From positions 1 to 39,161 of the forward strand of contig JBDRLB010000040.1 of assembly GCA_043813365.1 (NCBI GenBank): DNA of 39,161 nucleotides. The letters are read 5' to 3'. The translations under genes and the position numbers were made by a program. Positions 25,216 to 33,159 of this stretch are shown one piece after another (position 1 is the first letter of the stretch; every line of letters begins with the position of its first letter). Source of the stretch: Candidatus Micrarchaeota archaeon (GTDB lineage: Archaea; Micrarchaeota; Micrarchaeia; Norongarragalinales; SBBD01). The notes beneath the pieces are model-generated. The model did no database searches. It saw nothing but the letters and a program-made list of their open reading frames with translations, and was not told where the DNA came from.

Positions 25216-27141
25216 GTGAACAGAATTGCCATATACCTGATAGCTCTAATAATACTTGCGGGATTCGTTTCCGCTGCTGATTTCAATGCTTTTACCGTCA
25301 CGGCATCGAGTTCCACTGTCGGTGCCACCGCAGTCTATAACCTCACCATCAATGTAACAAACGATTTCTACAATTCGAGCAATGTCTCGATTTATTTCCC
25401 AGCGAGTTTCAATGTCAGCCTTGCCGAGGTAACGTCTTCTGCCGGGCTTGGAGCCAATGGCATTACCACTGTAACTGGCCAGGAGGTCAAATTCACCTAT
25501 GATAATGCGACGATTGCCGCAGCGACAGAAATCTCCCTAGGCATTTCGTGGGTGGTCAACAGGCAGACAACCGGCGCATTCAACATTTCGGCACAGATAA
25601 ACAACGAAACCGATGATTATTTCCTTGACGGCGGCGGCTCCAACATCATGAACCTTGCGCCTGGAACGACACATTATATTATACAGACCTATTCCAGCAC
25701 AACGCCGACTGCAGGGGAATCAATTACCGGCCAATTCGTTGCACTTGACAAATATGGCAACGAGAGATCTGACTTTTTCAACTATACATCAACCGACACT
25801 TTGGCGACTTTCACAAACGGGACTGCAAACAACACAATCGGCATCTTCAACCTCAGGACTGCCGGTTCGCCCTTGATAAGGGTTATCAGTAATTATAATT
25901 CAAGTGCCCAGAACACGACTGCTTTCTCCGTTACAGCAGAAGCAACTCCCGCGTTCATCACGTTGGCGACGTTTCCCAGCACTGCGACTGCCGGAGTTAA
26001 CTTTACGGGCAGCTTCAACTCAACCGACCGGTTCGGGAACCTTATCAGTGACACGTACGATTTTTATTCCAGCGATGCTTCAGCGGTGCTTCCGGAGAAC
26101 AATACGGTCACAAACGGCGGCAGCCAGGGCGCATTCCAGTTGCGCACTTCAGGGGAGCAGACGATTTCCGTAGTTTCACACTCCAACACATCGATCACCA
26201 ATGTGTCGACGTTCCTCATCAACGCCTCGACCGTTACCAAGGTCCTTCTCAGCCCCATGGCTCCAACACTTGCTTTCGGAGGGACGCAGAAGTTCACTGC
26301 CACGGCTGTTGACGCATATGGCAACACTAACACAACAATCACAGGCAATTATACCCATTTGGTGTATTCATGGACCAACCTTACTGGAAATGGAACGCTG
26401 AATTCCAGCGGCTTCTTTACATCCGTTTCAGCAGGCATAGTCAATGTTGTGGTCAATTTCTCCGGGGTTACCAATACCACCAACGTCACAATTAATGCAG
26501 CTGCCACACCCACGCCCACTCCCGCAATCGTCAATTCCATATCTGGAGGGAACGTTTATGACGATGTTCCGCAATCGACCGTTACCCCAACACCAACTGC
26601 TTCTGCGACTCCTTCGGCAATACCCGCCAAGACGGTCGTTATGGATGAATATTCATCCGCAACCGCCACATTCGGAACATCGAGCACCTCACTGGACCTT
26701 TCATACACTGCTGGCAGGAACGGCTTTGCGGGCACGGTTTCCTATTCGCTCCCGCTTGATTACGATGAAGTGAAGGATAAAATCAGCTGCACTCCCAGCT
26801 GCAAAATCACGCGCGGTAGCGTAATCATCACTTGGGATGTGAGCCTGCAGCCAAACCAGGAGTTCAGGGGGACTGTTGTTGTCCAAAAGCCGATTGAGCC
26901 AGCAGTGATCACGAAAATACCTGCACCAGTTACGAAACTTTCGCAGCCAACAGTTAAGCCGACCTCTATTGCAACGGCCGTGCCTAGCAAAATGGCGACC
27001 GGCAATGTTGTCGGATCCGATTACACCCCGTCCTCCAGTGGAGACGGCAATTCGCTCTTCCTTTGGATCGTCGTAATAGGGCTGCTTGTAGGTGGCTGGG
27101 TCTACTTCAACAGCACCAAGAAAAAAGGGAAAGAGCACTAA
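25216..27141 (+). CDS. Secreted, C-terminally anchored surface glycoprotein (Ig-like beta repeats)
   Basis: Signal peptide; Thr/Ser/Asn-rich with many N-x-S/T sequons; repeated D(K/R/A)(Y/F)GN units; Pro/Thr linkers; C-terminal TM plus basic tail. Confidence 0.8.
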   Translation: MNRIAIYLIALIILAGFVSAADFNAFTVTASSSTVGATAVYNLTINVTNDFYNSSNVSIYFPASFNVSLAEVTSSAGLGANGITTVTGQEVKFTYDNATIAAATEISLGISWVVNRQTTGAFNISAQINNETDDYFLDGGGSNIMNLAPGTTHYIIQTYSSTTPTAGESITGQFVALDKYGNERSDFFNYTSTDTLATFTNGTANNTIGIFNLRTAGSPLIRVISNYNSSAQNTTAFSVTAEATPAFITLATFPSTATAGVNFTGSFNSTDRFGNLISDTYDFYSSDASAVLPENNTVTNGGSQGAFQLRTSGEQTISVVSHSNTSITNVSTFLINASTVTKVLLSPMAPTLAFGGTQKFTATAVDAYGNTNTTITGNYTHLVYSWTNLTGNGTLNSSGFFTSVSAGIVNVVVNFSGVTNTTNVTINAAATPTPTPAIVNSISGGNVYDDVPQSTVTPTPTASATPSAIPAKTVVMDEYSSATATFGTSSTSLDLSYTAGRNGFAGTVSYSLPLDYDEVKDKISCTPSCKITRGSVIITWDVSLQPNQEFRGTVVVQKPIEPAVITKIPAPVTKLSQPTVKPTSIATAVPSKMATGNVVGSDYTPSSSGDGNSLFLWIVVIGLLVGGWVYFNSTKKKGKEH

Positions 27142-27310
27142 ACTTCCCTTTTTGTGCATTTTTCTGTGCATATGTGTTTTGTTCCCTAGTCGGCCATTTT
27201 CAATTGGTTGTATGCCTCCGCGTTTTTCCAAACAATCAAACCGAAAAGTATTTATAGGAAGGTTGCTTTTTTTGCTTAATCCCACCAATAATCGAATAAT
27301 AGGTGTTCGT

Positions 27311-29038
27311 ATGAATGCGTTGAGGCTATTGCTTTTCTCTGCCGTCCTTGTTGGAATGTTCGCAACATCCGTTCCCGCACCGGAAGGGGATGCGGCCGTA
27401 CCGAACCTTATAAGCGCAAATGACCGGATGCCCGCCATTCCAAGCCTATATGCCAAACCTGTAATTACCGATGAGCTCGCAAAATGCCGCCTCATGACAA
27501 CAGAAACCGATAGGGCAGTGTGCCTGAGGAGGATTGGCGCCACCGATAATGAATTGCTCCCTTTCCAGAGATGCAAATTGCTCTCAGATGACGATTCGCG
27601 CGCGAGATGCATTGAAGGCATCCGGGAAAATGTGCTGAATTCGCTGCCCGAAACGCAGCTAAGGGCGTGCGCTGCCATTCTCGGCGAAGCTGAACGGGAA
27701 AGATGCAAGCTCGCTGTTGCGAAACCTGCTGTTGCGCCCGGAAAATTATGTGAAAAATTCACCGACGCGGAAGATATAAAGCAGTGCAGGCTCGCACTCA
27801 CCGAGGGCATTGAAGCGGGCGTCACCTTGAGGGAAACCGCATATGCGTGCGTTGAAAAATTCGGGAATGATGTCGAGGGAAAGATTGCCTGCATGCGGAG
27901 GATCCAGAACGAAGTAATGGCTATCAAGCTCGATTGCTCGGTTTACACAAATTCTGACCTGAAGGGAAGGTGTGAGGTTTGCTCTTCTTTGGCGGATGCC
28001 GAGGAGCGCAGCGCCTGCGTAAACCGGATGGGGGAATGCCGCCAGAAATTCGAGGAAAAGGACAAGGATGCACTAAAGGCGTGCATCATGGAGCTCAAGA
28101 ACGACGACGAGCGCGAGAACCGCTGCAAGAACATAGGGGACGCGGACCTAAAGGCGGAATGCCTGCGTACCGAATACGGGCTGCATGGCCTTAAGTCATG
28201 CGGCGACAGGAACGGAACAACAAATGCAAGCTGCGTCGCAGAGCGAAAGGAGAAAACCGAGGAGTACATCGGGATGCAGCTGCGCATGTTGCAGAATGCG
28301 ATCGACAAATTGGAGGCGAACGGATACCTGACGCAGGAGCAGATAACTGCAATCAAGGAGTATGTTGCGGAAAAGAGAACCGAATTTGAAAATGCGCAAA
28401 CCGCGGAACAAAAGCGTGCGATCATAAAGGAAGTCCTCCAGAGATGGGAGCAATTCCGGAAAAACCAGCTGTTCCAGTATCATATGGGGGAGATCAACAA
28501 ACGCGTTGAAATTATCCAGAACAAGATTGGGAAGGTCAGGGAATTGGGTGCAAAACTGAAGGAAGCAGGCAAGGATACTTCCAAGCTGGATGAGGCCATA
28601 TCGAAAGTGGATGCGGTGATCGCGGAATTGAAGAACTCCAAGACCTTCAAGGAGGCGCAAACCGGGCTCAACTCCCTGCAGGCATACGTTGCGCATCTGA
28701 TGAAAGTTGTCGCATACATCAGGGAGGGCAAGCCACTGACCGAGATTCCGAACCCCACAATAAAGCCCAAGCCAACAGAGAAGCCCAAAGAGGAGAAATA
28801 CCGCACCGAAATCTGCGACCAAGCGTCAAGCCCTGAAAACAAGGAGATTTGCCTCGGGAACCTGATGCTGATGTACCGGGCGATAACCAATTCCGACCAG
28901 TTGCAATGCACCGAACTTTCCGATCCGGATCTTAAGGCCGGCTGCCCGGAATGGGTCCTGGATTATAAGAATTACAATGCATGGTATGAAAAATACTACT
29001 ATGCCTTGATTGATCCCAACAAACCCGAAGGCGAATAA
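27311..29038 (+). CDS. Secreted Cys-pair repeat / coiled-coil protein
   Basis: Signal peptide from ATG 27311 (AGGTG RBS); 24 Cys in 12 pairs, mostly C-x11-C; central helical coiled-coil region. Confidence 0.78.
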   Translation: MNALRLLLFSAVLVGMFATSVPAPEGDAAVPNLISANDRMPAIPSLYAKPVITDELAKCRLMTTETDRAVCLRRIGATDNELLPFQRCKLLSDDDSRARCIEGIRENVLNSLPETQLRACAAILGEAERERCKLAVAKPAVAPGKLCEKFTDAEDIKQCRLALTEGIEAGVTLRETAYACVEKFGNDVEGKIACMRRIQNEVMAIKLDCSVYTNSDLKGRCEVCSSLADAEERSACVNRMGECRQKFEEKDKDALKACIMELKNDDERENRCKNIGDADLKAECLRTEYGLHGLKSCGDRNGTTNASCVAERKEKTEEYIGMQLRMLQNAIDKLEANGYLTQEQITAIKEYVAEKRTEFENAQTAEQKRAIIKEVLQRWEQFRKNQLFQYHMGEINKRVEIIQNKIGKVRELGAKLKEAGKDTSKLDEAISKVDAVIAELKNSKTFKEAQTGLNSLQAYVAHLMKVVAYIREGKPLTEIPNPTIKPKPTEKPKEEKYRTEICDQASSPENKEICLGNLMLMYRAITNSDQLQCTELSDPDLKAGCPEWVLDYKNYNAWYEKYYYALIDPNKPEGE

Positions 29039-29051
29039 CCTGGTGATATGA

Positions 29052-29306
29052 ATGAAAAACATTGTGATTGCTTTATTGCTTTGCGGAGTTGTGCTATTCG
29101 GCTGCACCGGCCCGGGCCCCCAGCCGACTTCCAAACCTACCGAGTTGCCAACAGAAAAGCCCGTTGCGACAGTTTCAATAGGCCCGGATATTGAAAAAGG
29201 TCTGCAATCGGATGCGGATTCAATGAAGGAATTGGAGGAGCTTACGAAGGAAATCGATTCCTCAGGCTCACAAATAACTGATGAGGATTTAAACAACCTA
29301 GGTTAA
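29052..29306 (+). CDS. Small lipoprotein
   Basis: MKNIVIALLLCGVVLFG-C lipobox-like signal; Pro/Thr linker; acidic helix. Confidence 0.75.
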   Translation: MKNIVIALLLCGVVLFGCTGPGPQPTSKPTELPTEKPVATVSIGPDIEKGLQSDADSMKELEELTKEIDSSGSQITDEDLNNLG

Positions 29307-29316
29307 TCATATTTAT

Positions 29317-29522
29317 GGCCGTTCCCGAGGTGCAAATGCGATCGCGGCAATTTCCTATCCGATTTTCAATTTCCGGAATTTGAGCAGCTAGCCTGTTTTC
29401 ATCTAATCTGGGTTGAACGTCGGTTTTAGGGACTTCCTCCGGAGGGGGAGCAATTCATGCCCCCATGGAATGGGGCATTCCAACTTCCGCCGCAATTGCA
29501 GTGCATGAGCCCGGGAACGGCC
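29317..29522 (+). ncRNA. Unidentified structured ncRNA candidate (about 206 nt, four-way junction)
   Basis: 11-bp terminal stem GGCCGTTCCCG/CGGGAACGGCC, nested stems and three arms with G-U pairs favouring the + strand; TTTAAA at 29288-29293 upstream; T-rich tract downstream. Confidence 0.65.
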
Positions 29523-29644
29523 TTTTCCTATTTCTTTTTCCGCAATGCTTGGGCAAGGCAAAACAACCTTTTTAAACGTTGATCGCTAGAATAATTCCCT
29601 CAAAATCTGATTCTTAAAGTCAGAAAGTTTAATGGTGTCCAGTT

Positions 29645-31831
29645 ATGGCGCGGAAAGAGAACATTGCGGATGAAGCACAGAAGATGATGTCCAACCGGGA
29701 AAATATCCGGAACATCGGGATTGTTGCACACGTAGACCACGGAAAGACCACGCTGAGCGACTCGCTTGTAGCGCTTGCAGGCCTGATCTCCCAAGAGCTT
29801 GCTGGAGAGCAAAGAGTTCTTGATTACGACGAGCAGGAGCAGGCGCGGGGGATTACCATCAAGGCCGCCAACATTTCAATCCCATATACCTATGAGGGTC
29901 AGCCCTACCTGATCAATCTCATTGATACGCCCGGCCACGTAGATTTCGGAGGCCATGTGACGAGGGCGATGCGTGCGGTTGACGGGGCAATAGTTGTCAT
30001 CGATTGCGTGGAAGGCATCATGCCCCAGACCGAAACCGTCCTTCGGCAGGCATTGAAAGAAAAGGTGAAGCCAGTTGTATTCATCAATAAAATAGACCGT
30101 TACATCAACGAGCTGAAATTGGATGCGGCGCAGATGCAGCAGCGCTTCCTGAAAATCATCACCGGCGTCAATAAGCTGATCACAACTTATGCCTCCGAGG
30201 AGTTCAAAACGGAGTGGCAAATCGAAGTTCCCAAGGGGAATGTGGCTTTCGGCACGGCTTTCAACAAATGGGCGATTTCCGGCAAGCAGATGAAAAAGGC
30301 AGGCATCACCTTCAAGGACATTTATCAGGCATGCGTCGAGGGCCAGCACAAGGACCTCCAGAAGAAAATCCCGCTTGGCCCCGTAATAATGGACATCATC
30401 ATCAATCACCTTCCCAACCCGCTGGTTGCGCAAAAATACCGTGTTCCAGTAATCTGGCATGGCGACCTGGATAGCGATTTAGGGAAGAGCATGACGAATG
30501 TGGATGCCGCAGGAAAGGCGTGCTTCATGGTAACTGCGATACAAATGGATCCCCATGCGGGAGAAGTGGCTGTAGGAAGGCTATATTCGGGCACGCTCCA
30601 CAAGGGAAGCGACCTATACCTTGCATCGCAATTCAAGAAGGAAAAGCTGCAGGGAGTGGCGGTTTACATGGGTCAAGACCGCGTAACGATCGATTCGGTG
30701 CCAGCTGGCAATATCGTGGCGCTTGTCGGGCTCAAGGAGGTCTATTCCGGGGAAACAGTTTCCGAGGATCAAGTCACGCCATTCGAGCAAATCAAGCATC
30801 ATTCCGTTCCTGTTGTCACGAAGAGCATCGAGGCGAAGAACCCCCGCGATCTAGTCAAGTTAGTTGAGGTCATGAAGAAACTAGGCAAGGAAGACCCTAC
30901 AATGAAGCTGGAGATCAACCAGGACACCGGTGAGCACCTCATTTCGGGCATGGGCGAGCTCCACCTCGAGATTATCGAGTATAAGATCAAGAACGAGAAT
31001 GGGGTTGACATAGTCACTTCGCCGCCAATAGTCGTTTACCAGGAGTCGGTTTTTGGCGAATCGCCCGAATTGGAAGGGAAATCGCCCAACAAGCACAACA
31101 AGTTCAAAATAGAGGTCAAGCCCGTTGAGAAATCCGTCATTGATGCTATTAACGACGGCACAATAGACGAGCACAAGAAGGTCAAGGAGCTAATAGAGCT
31201 CCTGATCAAAGCTGGCCTGCCCCGTGATGAGGCCAAATCCGTCATGTGCATACATAACGGCAATTTCTTCCTTGACATGACCAAAGGGGTGCAGTATTTG
31301 ACGGACATCAAGGAAACCATCATTACCGCATTTGAGGAGGCGATGAACCAGGGCCCGCTTGCGAAGGAGAAGTGCATAGGCGTCAAGGTAATACTTACGG
31401 ATGCTGCAATCCACGTTGACCCCGCTCACAGGGGGCCGGCACAGCTTTTCCCCGCCATTAAGCGGCCCATATACGCGGGTATGCTGATGGCCAAGGCAAC
31501 ATTGCTGGAGCCGAAGCAGAAATTGGTAGTCAATTCCCCCTCCGAATACCTAGGCAACATCACAACCAAAGTGCAGGGAAGGCGCGCAATCATCGAGAAC
31601 ATCGAGCAGGAGGGCGAAGTGGTCACGGTAACAGCAAAAATACCGGTTGCGGAGATGTTCGGCTTTGCGAATGAGATCCGCGGAGCCACCCAAGGGAGAG
31701 CTGCATGGTACTATGAATATGCCGGCTATGAGAAGCTCAACCCTGATATGCAGGCACGTGTGCAGGCACTGATCCGGAAGAGGAAGGGCGAGCCCGAAAC
31801 CGCTCCGACAGCGAAGGACTTCATGGAGTAA
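29645..31831 (+). CDS. fusA: Translation elongation factor aEF-2
   Basis: AHVDHGKTT, RGITI, DTPGHVDF, NKID, GMGELHLE, diphthamide loop DPAHRGPAQ. Confidence 0.98.
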   Translation: MARKENIADEAQKMMSNRENIRNIGIVAHVDHGKTTLSDSLVALAGLISQELAGEQRVLDYDEQEQARGITIKAANISIPYTYEGQPYLINLIDTPGHVDFGGHVTRAMRAVDGAIVVIDCVEGIMPQTETVLRQALKEKVKPVVFINKIDRYINELKLDAAQMQQRFLKIITGVNKLITTYASEEFKTEWQIEVPKGNVAFGTAFNKWAISGKQMKKAGITFKDIYQACVEGQHKDLQKKIPLGPVIMDIIINHLPNPLVAQKYRVPVIWHGDLDSDLGKSMTNVDAAGKACFMVTAIQMDPHAGEVAVGRLYSGTLHKGSDLYLASQFKKEKLQGVAVYMGQDRVTIDSVPAGNIVALVGLKEVYSGETVSEDQVTPFEQIKHHSVPVVTKSIEAKNPRDLVKLVEVMKKLGKEDPTMKLEINQDTGEHLISGMGELHLEIIEYKIKNENGVDIVTSPPIVVYQESVFGESPELEGKSPNKHNKFKIEVKPVEKSVIDAINDGTIDEHKKVKELIELLIKAGLPRDEAKSVMCIHNGNFFLDMTKGVQYLTDIKETIITAFEEAMNQGPLAKEKCIGVKVILTDAAIHVDPAHRGPAQLFPAIKRPIYAGMLMAKATLLEPKQKLVVNSPSEYLGNITTKVQGRRAIIENIEQEGEVVTVTAKIPVAEMFGFANEIRGATQGRAAWYYEYAGYEKLNPDMQARVQALIRKRKGEPETAPTAKDFME

Positions 31832-31846
31832 TGGATTATTTTACAA

Positions 31847-32413
31847 TTATTTTTTTTCCTCTAGTTTGACCTCCACCGGTTTCCTTTCGCCTTCAGCAGC
31901 TCCGAAATATTCCCTCGCAGGCATCCCCGCCAGACCGGCAATCACGTTCCAGGGGAATATTGCGATAGAGTTATTGTAATTCAGTGCAGTATCGTTATAG
32001 AAGGAGCGCGAATAAGCAATTCTCTCCTCAGCATCCGAAATCTCATCCTGCAAATGCAGGAAATTCTCATTTGCCTTCAATACGGGGTAATTTTCCGCGA
32101 CTGCTATAAGTGATTTTACGGATTTTTGCATCTGCTCGTTCGCGTTGAACTTTTCCCCGACTGTTTTAGCGCCTTCGAACATGCTCCTTGCTTTCGCGAT
32201 ATTTTCAAAAACGCTCCTCTCGAATTTCGCATAACCCTTTACGACTTCAACTAGATTCGGTATCAGATCATATCTCCTTTTCATCTGGATGTCAATCTGG
32301 CTCCACGAATCATGGCACCTCTCACGCAGTTGCACGAGCCGGTTGTACACGATTACGCAAGCGATTGCCAGCAAAACTAGCGATGCCCCGATTATTTGCA
32401 AAATGAAATCCAT
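31847..32413 (-). CDS. lemA: LemA family protein
   Basis: YNRLV, WSQIDIQMKRRYDLIPNLV, AENYPVLKANENF, RSFYND, FPWN. Confidence 0.93.
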   Translation of the reverse strand: MDFILQIIGASLVLLAIACVIVYNRLVQLRERCHDSWSQIDIQMKRRYDLIPNLVEVVKGYAKFERSVFENIAKARSMFEGAKTVGEKFNANEQMQKSVKSLIAVAENYPVLKANENFLHLQDEISDAEERIAYSRSFYNDTALNYNNSIAIFPWNVIAGLAGMPAREYFGAAEGERKPVEVKLEEKK

Positions 32414-32421
32414 TTTCAACC

Positions 32422-33159
32422 TCAATTCCCCATGATTGTTCCTAGCATTCCAAAGGGCGAAAATGAAAAGCTGAAAAATAACGCGCCCAAAATCATGAGC
32501 GCCCCGATTATCCCCAAAACATAACCTATTGCCGTATTGAGCTTGTCATCAGAGCGCATTTCCGCAATGAATTCCGTCTCCGTTTTCGTTGCAGCCGCAA
32601 TCGGCTCCGAAGCGCTCTTCTTCACGATGAGCCCTCCTTGGTCCTTGAAAACCATCCCATACACGAATGCTTTCTCAACAGGTATCGCGTACTCCCTCTT
32701 CCTCATGTGAAAACCTTCCGAACTATGCACCTTCACTCCCCTGATAAGATCCTGTTCTGCCCCATTCAGGTCAACACAGATTGATCCTGTTGGATCAACT
32801 AGCTGGAATTCAGCTGTTCTCACAATATCCTCGACCGTTTGCCAGTATCCGTGCTTCCTCCCCTTTGAATCCGTCTCCTCATGGTATTCCTCCGTGATGC
32901 TGTGTGACCAAACGCACTGGGAACCGCTGTATGGAGCGATCGCGGGCTTATTGCATACAATTTTGGAAAACGTTTTCACCGGTACCCCGTCAATCGCATC
33001 GTGGAGGTCAGTCGGGGGAAGCCTTTGGATTTTGTAGAGCGCCTTATCTTCATCCTTCGTTTTTTTCAGGATGAACCAGCCTACAGCAAGGAAAACCAAT
33101 CCCATTAAACCCAGAATCATCCTTGCTTCGGAAAAGAAACTGCCAATCGGATCCGCCAT
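32422..33159 (-). CDS. GIDE-domain membrane protein (paralog 3)
   Basis: TM - P(T)DLHDA...CVW...EEY...WQTV...F.LVDPTGSI.VDL.GA...KREY - TM; stop abuts lemA. Confidence 0.72.
   Translation of the reverse strand: MADPIGSFFSEARMILGLMGLVFLAVGWFILKKTKDEDKALYKIQRLPPTDLHDAIDGVPVKTFSKIVCNKPAIAPYSGSQCVWSHSITEEYHEETDSKGRKHGYWQTVEDIVRTAEFQLVDPTGSICVDLNGAEQDLIRGVKVHSSEGFHMRKREYAIPVEKAFVYGMVFKDQGGLIVKKSASEPIAAATKTETEFIAEMRSDDKLNTAIGYVLGIIGALMILGALFFSFSFSPFGMLGTIMGN

Follow-up and report, generated by a model that had tools for sequence, protein, structure and literature searches.

A dedicated gene for a structured RNA, probably circular and matured at a relaxed bulge-helix-bulge motif, in Norongarragalinales archaea

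In a 39,161-nt stretch of DNA from a Candidatus Micrarchaeota archaeon (assembly GCA_043813365.1, contig JBDRLB010000040.1, whole stretch, forward strand; hereafter the window), we analyzed a structured element located between an 84-codon lipoprotein-like open reading frame (ORF; 29052-29306) and a downstream gene (29645-31831) identified as that of elongation factor 2 (aEF2) by the Pfam families GTP_EFTU, EFG_III, EFG_IV and EFG_C. The element is probably a dedicated gene for a circular structured RNA, which would be matured at a relaxed motif of the bulge-helix-bulge (BHB) kind. The assembly of this genome (G000) has 1.34 Mb in 78 contigs and is 88.6% complete.

Results

A back-joined RNA contig marks a 173-nt body

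Folding of 29310-29530 on the + strand gave a minimum free energy of -96.9 kcal/mol, compared with -70.2 +/- 4.6 for dinucleotide shuffles, none of which was as good (0/200; z -5.84), and the minus strand of the same interval folded more weakly (z -4.86). An earlier reading of this DNA, made from its letters alone (the sequence-only reading), had described a ~206-nt RNA in which a terminal stem and an inner helix close a junction with three arms. Every helix that it listed was found in the sequence, and the structure is confirmed as real. The terminal stem 29317-29327/29512-29522 is a perfect helix of 11 base pairs (bp), a GUGC/GCAU helix stands between it and the inner helix, and one long and two shorter arms follow as described; the inner helix 29337-29348/29489-29500 is present with 11 of its 12 positions paired.

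One public groundwater metatranscriptome (RNA run X6) holds part of this stretch. The contig from this run (record 25; 164 nt, with a mean word depth of 3.4) runs through 29400-29507, with one mismatch in this part, and continues without a gap into 29335-29388, at a joint that goes back 173 nt. One letter fits both sides of the joint, and 29507->29335 therefore equals 29508->29336. In the second (+1) reading, the bulge GAG (29507-29509) and the loop AAA (29334-29336) are each cut behind their second nucleotide. The joint thus lies inside the two loops that flank the 4-bp helix GUGC/GCAU (helix H), and its +1 geometry is that of the intron in the transfer RNA (tRNA) for isoleucine described below. 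Contigs from DNA runs are colinear across 29507/8 (X1, 29432-29729; X2, 29410-29589; X4, 29493-29643). Therefore, a permuted form of the RNA exists in the RNA library. X6 covers only 29335-29507 and a 37-nt conserved piece of aEF2; contigs cannot show absence, and the missing cover on the terminal stem and on the neighboring genes was not used as evidence.

This contig, one from one run, bears out the earlier suggestion that the RNA is circularized at its BHB-like GTGC/GCAT region. The proposed ~206-nt unit is real as an element, but because the back-joined contig marks a 173-nt body, ~206 nt is more likely the length of a precursor. On this one piece of RNA evidence, the mature RNA is probably a 173-nt circle, 29336-29508. 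The parts of the element are as follows, P1 denoting the terminal stem:

29288..29293, +: TATA-like box TTTAAA, with its end 24 nt upstream of the terminal stem; putative promoter
29317..29329, +: 5' strand of P1, outer helix h of the BHB, pairing with 29510-29522; proposed to be discarded with the 5' 'exon'
29330..29333, +: GUGC, 5' strand of the 4-bp central helix H, pairing with GCAU 29503-29506
29334..29336, +: 5' cleavage loop AAA, facing 2 nt at 29501-29502; cut after 29334 or 29335
29336..29508, +: mature RNA, most likely a 173-nt covalently closed circle, from the back-joined RNA contig
29337..29348, +: 5' strand of the basal stem of the circle (inner helix h' UGCG plus GCGGC), pairing with 29489-29500
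29352..29432, +: long variable arm of several helices with the distal hairpin GCAGC/CUGUU, from fold and covariation
29433..29448, +: small hairpin with palindromic loop CCGG (29439-29442); supported core CCU 29436-38/AGG 29443-45
29446..29450, +: 5' strand of the third-arm closing helix, pairing with 29484-29488; covaries
29454..29460, +: UUCAUGC, proposed partner of the junction loop GCAUGA|A in a putative long-range pseudoknot
29459..29481, +: third-arm pseudoknot or switch, S1 29459-63/29472-76 and S2 29467-71/29477-81
29503..29506, +: GCAU; in the precursor the 3' strand of helix H, in the circle the initial 4 nt of the junction loop; GCAY in 18/18 members
29507..29509, +: 3-nt bulge GAG, 3' cleavage site; cut after 29507 or 29508
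29510..29522, +: 3' strand of P1; proposed to be discarded with the 3' 'exon'
29523..29545, +: T-rich tract TTTTCCTATTTCTTTTTCC, likely archaeal terminator

The joint falls within a relaxed bulge-helix-bulge motif

In all 18 family members accepted in the homologue searches below, the variable P1 adjoins an invariant 4-bp helix H, with GUGY on its 5' side and GCAY on its 3' side. A 3-nt bulge (GAA, GAG, GAU or GGA) stands between helix H and P1 on the 3' side in 18/18. On the 5' side, a 3-nt loop precedes the inner helix (ANA in 16/18), and 2 nt (RA, GU or CA) lie opposite it in 16/18, the remaining genus, g3, having a 5x4 loop. Flanking helices, h and h', stand on both sides of the motif in the form of P1 and the basal stem (29337-48/29489-500). 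By definition, a BHB has two 3-nt bulges with a 4-bp helix between them, and its relaxed form, in which one bulge is disrupted, is cut only by (alpha-beta)2 and epsilon2 endonucleases, the latter known from relatives of Micrarchaeum (PMC5829648). Judged by its sequence and pairing, the base of the stem is a relaxed BHB motif.

The genome's own tRNA-Ile(GAU), with an intron at 37/38, offers a comparison. There, CUGA/UCGG forms helix H, and each bulge is located 3' of its H strand and, as read from the sequence, is cut after the second nucleotide. An anticodon loop of 7 nt is made up of 4 + 2 + 1 nt, in agreement with this geometry. A mirror-image reading of the motif was rejected, the bulges of the tRNA-Ile intron being on the same side as those found here. 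In genus g17 (L093, L094 and L147), the terminal stem is broken up just 3' of the bulge: no more than 2-4 bp are stacked next to helix H, and a perfect extra hairpin (e.g. AAAGGCCUUUAUAAUAAAGGCCUUU) occurs on the 3' side before the outer stem resumes.

Both enzymes expected for such a route are encoded in the genome. A 392-codon frame on contig C73 gave two tRNA_int_endo (PF01974) matches (75.6 and 27.5 bits). Residues 12-388 of the 388-aa endonuclease, encoded at C73:2253-3419, matched PDB 4fz2_A (395 aa, 'tRNA intron endonuclease') with an E-value of 2e-128, and other endonucleases matched its catalytic part only (5e-24 or weaker). We take 4FZ2 to be the epsilon2 enzyme of ARMAN-2. RtcB (PF01139) is also present, with matches of 322.6, 173.4 and 68.3 bits. 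It was found in pieces (L100-L102; C27:11425-13434 and C7:31021-31758), model positions 1-50 and 42-194 lying ~1.4 kb apart in one 719-codon frame on C27 and positions 186-426 at the contig end of C7; the split match on C27 suggests an intein. In the assembly, ARAGORN found only 10 tRNA genes, and it predicted introns in 6. Two of these introns are implausibly long (1253 and 2296 nt), and most tRNA genes are probably disrupted in ways that ARAGORN does not model. Organisms with broad-specificity endonucleases have many disrupted tRNA genes (PMC5829648), and the present tRNA set would fit such a lineage.

The RNA is conserved as a covarying structure in one archaeal order

BLAST found the element in 5/5 other genomes of the genus (75-83% identity, E-values of 2e-12 to 7e-36) and gave no convincing match in the other 54 relatives searched. 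From the six congeners, RNAalifold predicted 70 pairs, 23 of which showed compensatory changes. Two covariance models were then used, R1 for the whole RNA and R2 for 74 positions of its 3' part. R1 matched 10/67 genomes of the order, including four distant ones with 33-56 bits over the whole model. R2 matched 20/67 at E-values up to 0.1, and 18 matches were accepted after inspection; those in G065 and G042 (24-26 bits) were rejected because the 5' motif and the terminal stem P1 were missing. The accepted members are distributed as follows, a zero meaning that models R1 and R2 found none and not that the RNA is absent:

Family f1: 8/10 genomes (genera g1 6/6, g3 2/2, g2 0/1, g4 0/1)
Family f7: 3/6 genomes
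Family f9: 7/12 genomes
Families without an accepted member: f11 0/26, f2 0/7, six single-genome families 0/6

A pattern of the two most conserved motifs matched 11/400 genomes of the class, compared with 1/400 for the reversed control, and 0/333 class genomes outside the order. At class level, R1 matched family f1 only (7/151 genomes), a search in which few candidates were scored per genome and which is therefore uninformative on absence. A looser pattern, GTGYN{120,320}GCANNGCAYGA, was discarded as noise after matching five genomes at about the rate of its reversed control, and a pattern scan of metagenomes returned one locus (L132), which did not widen the diversity. So far, the family appears confined to one order of DPANN archaea, Norongarragalinales. 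The homologue search proposed in the sequence-only reading thus yielded conserved relatives with a covarying structure.

Across 10 homologues, 94.6% of 632 pair cells were paired, compared with 76.1% in column shuffles and 39-46% with slid partners, and 48/68 pairs changed on both sides. None of 500 shuffles reached any of five measures; the alignment had been fitted to R1 and hence leans to the model, but the margin is large. In the same homologues, P1 was kept as a helix and not as a sequence, all 12 of its modelled pairs changing on both sides with 95.7% of cells paired. Helix H was paired in 100% of cells, with G.U to G-C and C-G to U.G variants. Two-sided changes were found in 7/10 pairs of the basal stem (helix 3; 96.9% of cells paired), 14/16 pairs of the long arm (helix 6) and 6/6 pairs of the third-arm closing helix (helix 9; 96.6%). 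For the small hairpin (helix 8), the pair counts were CG:6/UA:4 and CG:9/UA:1. A hairpin in arm 29433-29450 had been described before and is present, but covariation favors the register CCU-CCGG-AGG over the pairing then given.

The transcribed strand is +. For the six genus-g1 loci, R1 gave 172.8-217.6 bits in the + orientation, and on the reverse strand 23.1, 16.7, 11.6, 11.3 and 7.5 bits for five of them, the sixth not being listed. These scores come from an unfiltered cmsearch of 14 loci, most of whose 114 matches were spurious, and the derived alignment was not used.

The element also has terminal inverted repeats and overlaps ORFs of 41 aa (+) and 52 aa (-), features that a mobile element such as a miniature inverted-repeat transposable element (MITE), or a small protein-coding gene, would show. 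Either identity is scarcely credible. The substitutions preserve base pairs, not codons, and the upstream synteny is conserved in the genus. A check for dispersed copies found only one copy of the element in the 1.34-Mb assembly, where the next BLAST match is 23 nt long (E 0.02), and each R1-matching genome had one R1 match. A weak second R2 match was seen beside the existing copy in G009 (C97:11024-11090, minus strand; E 0.029, 24.9 bits).

The circle would carry a helix across its ligation junction

The basal stem opens into a junction with three arms, namely the long variable arm, the small hairpin and a third arm closed by 29446-50/29484-88. The G-rich strand 29446-29450 pairs with 29484-29488, and the 3' G-run of the small hairpin overlaps this closing helix. 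The loop of the small hairpin is always a 4-nt palindrome (CCGG; CGCG in G002 and G015; CUAG in G026), which might permit dimerization. In families f7 and f9, the long arm is replaced by longer, different arms, and through arm expansion the circle varies from 172 to 346 nt across genera.

Two helices, S1 and S2, occur in the third arm of every genus, S2 being formed between the loop of S1 and the segment that follows S1 immediately on the 3' side. In seven genera, S2 reads GGAAU/AUUCC; GAACAG/CUGUUC or, also within g3, GAACUG/CAGUUC; CGAAAC/GUUUCG; AAACCA/UGGUUU; CGGAA/UUCCG; UGAAC/GUUCG; and UCGAAA/UUUCGA. Its cells are paired at 87.5% in an imperfect alignment, and shuffle figures for it are unusable as a test, because the minimum-energy fold picks either S1 or S2. 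The sequence-only reading had noticed this helix as TGGAATG/CATTCCA, a mutually exclusive alternative to the first hairpin. Its occurrence in every genus with differing sequences upholds the observation but not the exclusivity, as it is compatible with the first hairpin. Because S1 and S2 share no positions in their core pairs, an H-type pseudoknot is predicted to be as likely as a switch.

The basal stem of the circle is capped on the other side by a 9-nt loop, R-A-G-C-A-U-G-A|A (the bar marking the ligation site), which is the most conserved sequence of the family. The complement of this junction loop, UUCAUGC (29454-29460), occupies a fixed position on the third arm's 5' side. The pairing held in 83/84 cells in 14 sequences, compared with 32-43% with slid partners, and in 124/126 cells when read by eye at the homologous site in 18 members; a best-site scan also gave 124/126, with another site chosen in G030. 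Compensatory changes were found from U-A to C-G in genus g3 and from A-U to G-C in G030 (bulge GGA, partner ACUAUGC), and G-C changed to G.U four times. From these data, we infer a GCAUGA|A/UUCAUGC helix across the ligation junction. The seventh pair of this helix would bridge the ligation site, with one nucleotide from each side, and the fold would therefore be complete only after cutting and joining. In addition, the helix would require GCAU to be released from helix H, where it is paired in the precursor.

These findings bear on whether the RNA is instead a linear, stand-alone ~206-nt non-coding RNA closed by its terminal stem, as in the sequence-only reading, in which case the contig would be artefactual or a minor side product and the conserved region at the base would serve protein binding rather than processing. 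The long P1 does covary, as expected for part of a functional RNA, the joint is backed by a single contig, and the motif deviates from the canonical BHB. However, the joint matches, to the nucleotide, both loops flanking the invariant 4-bp helix; P1 is conserved as a helix only; and the bulge nucleotide A29508 covaries with a distant position in G030, which a linear model leaves unexplained. We therefore consider the linear form unlikely.

The element is a separate transcription unit in changing surroundings

The transcription signals noted in the sequence-only reading were all found again: TTTAAA at 29288-29293, the T-rich tract after 29522 and a separate aEF2 box, TTTTTAAA, at 29569-29576. 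An A/T-rich box precedes the terminal stem by ~25-30 nt in 14/14 homologues read (for instance, genus g3 has AAAGGTTTATATA, and families f7 and f9 have TAGGYTTTTTATT). Most homologues have a T-run after P1, none being obvious in G015. A 648-aa protein and a small lipoprotein are encoded upstream in 5/5 congeners. Downstream, aEF2 was found in 3/5 congeners and 2/2 genomes of genus g3, and a different gene in G002 and G004. Genomes of other families differ again in their neighbors, with ScpB next to a convergent RNase HII for G015, and MarC and TatD along with a convergent aIF5A for G022.

With aEF2 lying 120-175 nt downstream on the same strand in the window and in the congeners and g3 genomes just counted, the element could in principle be a cis-acting leader, or an intron in the 5' untranslated region (UTR), of the elongation factor gene. 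A BHB intron in a 5' UTR is known, that of HVO_1309 in Haloferax (PMC7714728). Against this stand the other downstream or convergent genes in G002, G004, G015 and G022, the T-tract after P1 and the box that aEF2 has of its own. Because the neighbors change and the signals are separate, the RNA is neither an aEF2 leader, a reading that we hold to be very improbable, nor linked through gene order to any protein partner.

The RNA matches no known family

The sequence-only reading had failed to match the element to 5S ribosomal RNA (rRNA), ribonuclease P (RNase P) RNA or the canonical helix 8 of signal recognition particle (SRP) RNA, and Rfam 15 agreed, with 0 matches at gathering over the 39,161 nt. 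A permissive scan of 29200-29660 (E up to 10) returned no SRP, RNase P or 5S match, even partial. It gave four matches far below the cut-offs (E 0.9-3.4: a microRNA, two small nucleolar RNAs and a piece of a long non-coding RNA). Separate genes for these RNAs were found on other contigs, namely SRP RNA (RF01857) on C70 with 69 bits over the full model, RNase P RNA (RF00373) on C77 with 103.5 bits and 5S rRNA (RF00001) on C29 with 65 bits. The earlier suggestion of a very divergent housekeeping RNA is thus unsupported, all three genes being present elsewhere and none matching at the locus. Its other suggestion, a stand-alone novel non-coding RNA, is supported by the lack of an Rfam match, the single copy, a promoter-like box and T-tract of its own and the changing downstream neighbor. 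The SRP RNA of this genome (C70:5477-5744) scores below the Rfam gathering score of 96.5 despite matching the model from end to end, and standard annotation would miss it.

Alternatively, the locus might hold a circularly permuted gene for SRP RNA, RNase P RNA or a tRNA, whose order is restored by circularization. The mechanism would be the same as for the SRP RNA of Thermoproteus (PMC4731332), and covariance models can miss permuted genes. However, full-length SRP, RNase P and 5S genes lie elsewhere in the genome, the permissive scan of the colinear locus gave not even a partial match, and a circle of 172-346 nt in different genera is too long and variable for a tRNA. This origin is highly improbable.

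The search for a host gene was likewise negative: ARAGORN found no tRNA within the window, and no tRNA exons surround the element, whose flanks form a continuous 11-14 bp helix, with the upstream ORF ending at 29306. The element could nevertheless be an orphan BHB intron, still excised as a circle from a decayed tRNA or rRNA gene but without a function of its own. Its excision geometry is that of tRNA introns, and the ligated 'exons' would form a hairpin with an anticodon-loop-like loop of 7 nt, G-U-G-C-A-A-G (U second, GCA following); the short ARAGORN list, 10 tRNAs with 6 predicted introns, points the same way. On the other hand, a covarying multi-helix fold, pseudoknot helices and invariant loops are retained inside the element throughout three families, and selection has therefore acted on the excised part. 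Moreover, no tRNA-like flanks exist, the upstream ORF ends 11 nt before P1, and the conservation of GUGY is explained by its being the complement of the conserved loop GCAY. A functionless orphan intron is therefore very unlikely.

Other identities were considered for the circle itself. C/D box RNAs have a C box, RUGAUGA, and a D box, CUGA, which form a kink-turn. Neither box was recognized in the 173-nt sequence when inspected by eye against this consensus. A kink-turn at the stem base was rejected, as none of four registers around helix H (0/4) had a 3-nt bulge followed by tandem G.A pairs. Rolling-circle translation was also rejected: the circle contains stop codons, and the junction-spanning AUG frame has 19 codons in G000 and 14 in G001.

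Discussion

We propose that transcription would start ~25 nt after the TATA-like box and end in the T-tract, giving a precursor of ~206-230 nt whose 5' and 3' ends would pair into the long, freely covarying P1. At the inner end of P1, a relaxed BHB would form, comprising the GAN 3' bulge, the GUGY/GCAY helix and the ANA 5' loop faced by 2 nt. The 388-aa, 4fz2-like splicing endonuclease would cut after the second nucleotide of each loop, and RtcB would join the ends of the excised body into the 173-nt circle 29336-29508. The 'exons' would consist only of the P1 hairpin and presumably be discarded. The junction loop, freed from helix H, could then pair with UUCAUGC beside the pseudoknotted third arm.

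Several observations weigh against this proposal. The circular junction is one assembled contig from one metatranscriptome of one study; such contigs carry no information on abundance, ends or strand, and template switching by reverse transcriptase may have produced it. The motif is not a canonical BHB, 2 nt facing the 5' loop in 16/18 members and the loop being 5x4 in g3. The junction-loop pairing has mismatches, central in G004 and terminal in G030, and a 7-nt complement, with G.U allowed, occurs somewhere in 10-24% of shuffled sequences. Since chance complements are this common, the case for the pairing rests on its fixed position and the two double changes. The change in g3 is also explained by helix H and an extension of S1; that in G030 is not explained by the BHB, because the second bulge nucleotide is unpaired in the precursor. 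Finally, neither a conserved protein neighbor nor an Rfam similarity pointing to a function was found, and the family went undetected in 49/67 genomes of the order, with searches of limited sensitivity.

As to its role, we suggest, with low confidence, that the RNA acts as a circle, as a stable structural RNA or as a scaffold for a ribonucleoprotein (RNP), rather than as a cis-regulator of its neighbors, which change and have separate transcription signals. The combination of variable arms with a conserved core resembles the pattern of RNase P and SRP RNA. A bolder possibility, which we advance only tentatively, is that the RNA exists as a circle alone, made from a gene that is all 'intron', with the endonuclease and RtcB as obligatory maturation and folding factors. 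In that case, ligation would create a continuous 7-bp pseudoknot helix that locks the basal stem onto the third arm, and the circle would be the RNA subunit of an undescribed RNP or a catalytic or ligand-binding RNA.

Related systems share parts of this arrangement. The permuted SRP RNA of Thermoproteus is reportedly circularized by way of BHB excision. As here, a structured RNA other than tRNA or rRNA is involved, with circularization restoring function; in contrast, that case concerns a known universal RNA with a rearranged gene, whereas the present gene is colinear, belongs to no known family and coexists with a normal SRP RNA gene (PMC4731332). Circular tRNA introns, among them the tRNA-Trp intron that is a circular C/D box RNA (PMC12558985), and the tRNA intronic circular RNAs of metazoans (tricRNAs; PMC4536317) are likewise excised at a BHB and ligated to stable circles, with the excised part being functional. 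They differ from the present RNA, which has no host tRNA, 'exons' forming only a hairpin, and a multi-arm pseudoknotted fold of 172-346 nt. In circular pre-16S and pre-23S rRNA, the 5' and 3' flanks also form a long processing stem, whose inner end carries a BHB, and the RNA between them is circularized (PMC12558985; bioRxiv 10.64898/2026.03.23.713588). Those circles are intermediates that are reopened, though permuted 23S forms exist; here, the RNA is small and of no known family, and nothing suggests reopening.

The 5'-UTR BHB intron of Haloferax volcanii HVO_1309 is, like the present element, a substrate outside tRNA and rRNA and has been detected in circular form (PMC7714728), but it lies inside an mRNA, whereas the element described here is a separate transcription unit in varying contexts. 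Relaxed BHB substrates (hBH and HBh') also have one canonical and one disrupted bulge, and a long single-chain endonuclease is present here; the disrupted side in our family is a conserved 3x2 internal loop (ANA facing RA), a form not met in the available part of PMC5829648. A literature search on Micrarchaeota and circular RNA, covering the main texts of openly available papers, returned only endonuclease work, and searches on BHB, circular RNA, DPANN, Nanoarchaeum and small RNA found no such RNA among the titles and abstracts listed.

The mechanism, endonuclease plus ligase, is known. The novelty lies in a dedicated colinear gene from which the excised circle is the only evident product, and in an RNA family without an Rfam relative. 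BHB cleavage with subsequent RtcB ligation has been described for the introns of tRNA, the precursors of rRNA, a single permuted SRP RNA and a single mRNA leader, and here the same route appears as the dedicated maturation of a conserved, highly structured RNA without a host gene. The member genomes are 0.9-1.6 Mb in size, and the endonuclease is of an unusually broad-specificity type. If the proposal is true, it enlarges the small set of functional archaeal circular RNAs by one family and provides a natural example of circularization completing a tertiary helix, and BHB-guided searches of intergenic regions in DPANN genomes could reveal RNA genes missed by covariance-model libraries.

Neighboring genes

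The gene pair upstream of the element encodes the 648-aa protein (27092-29038, +), which has no Pfam family, and the 84-aa protein (29052-29306, +), which carries a lipoprotein-type signal, LFGC. The pair is syntenic in 5/5 congeners at 36-50% identity, and no relative of the 648-aa protein was found in a search of the genome-contig collection. Further downstream, a LemA-family gene (31847-32425, -) overlaps by 4 nt a gene with a match to GIDE (E3 ubiquitin ligase-like; 32422-33159, -).

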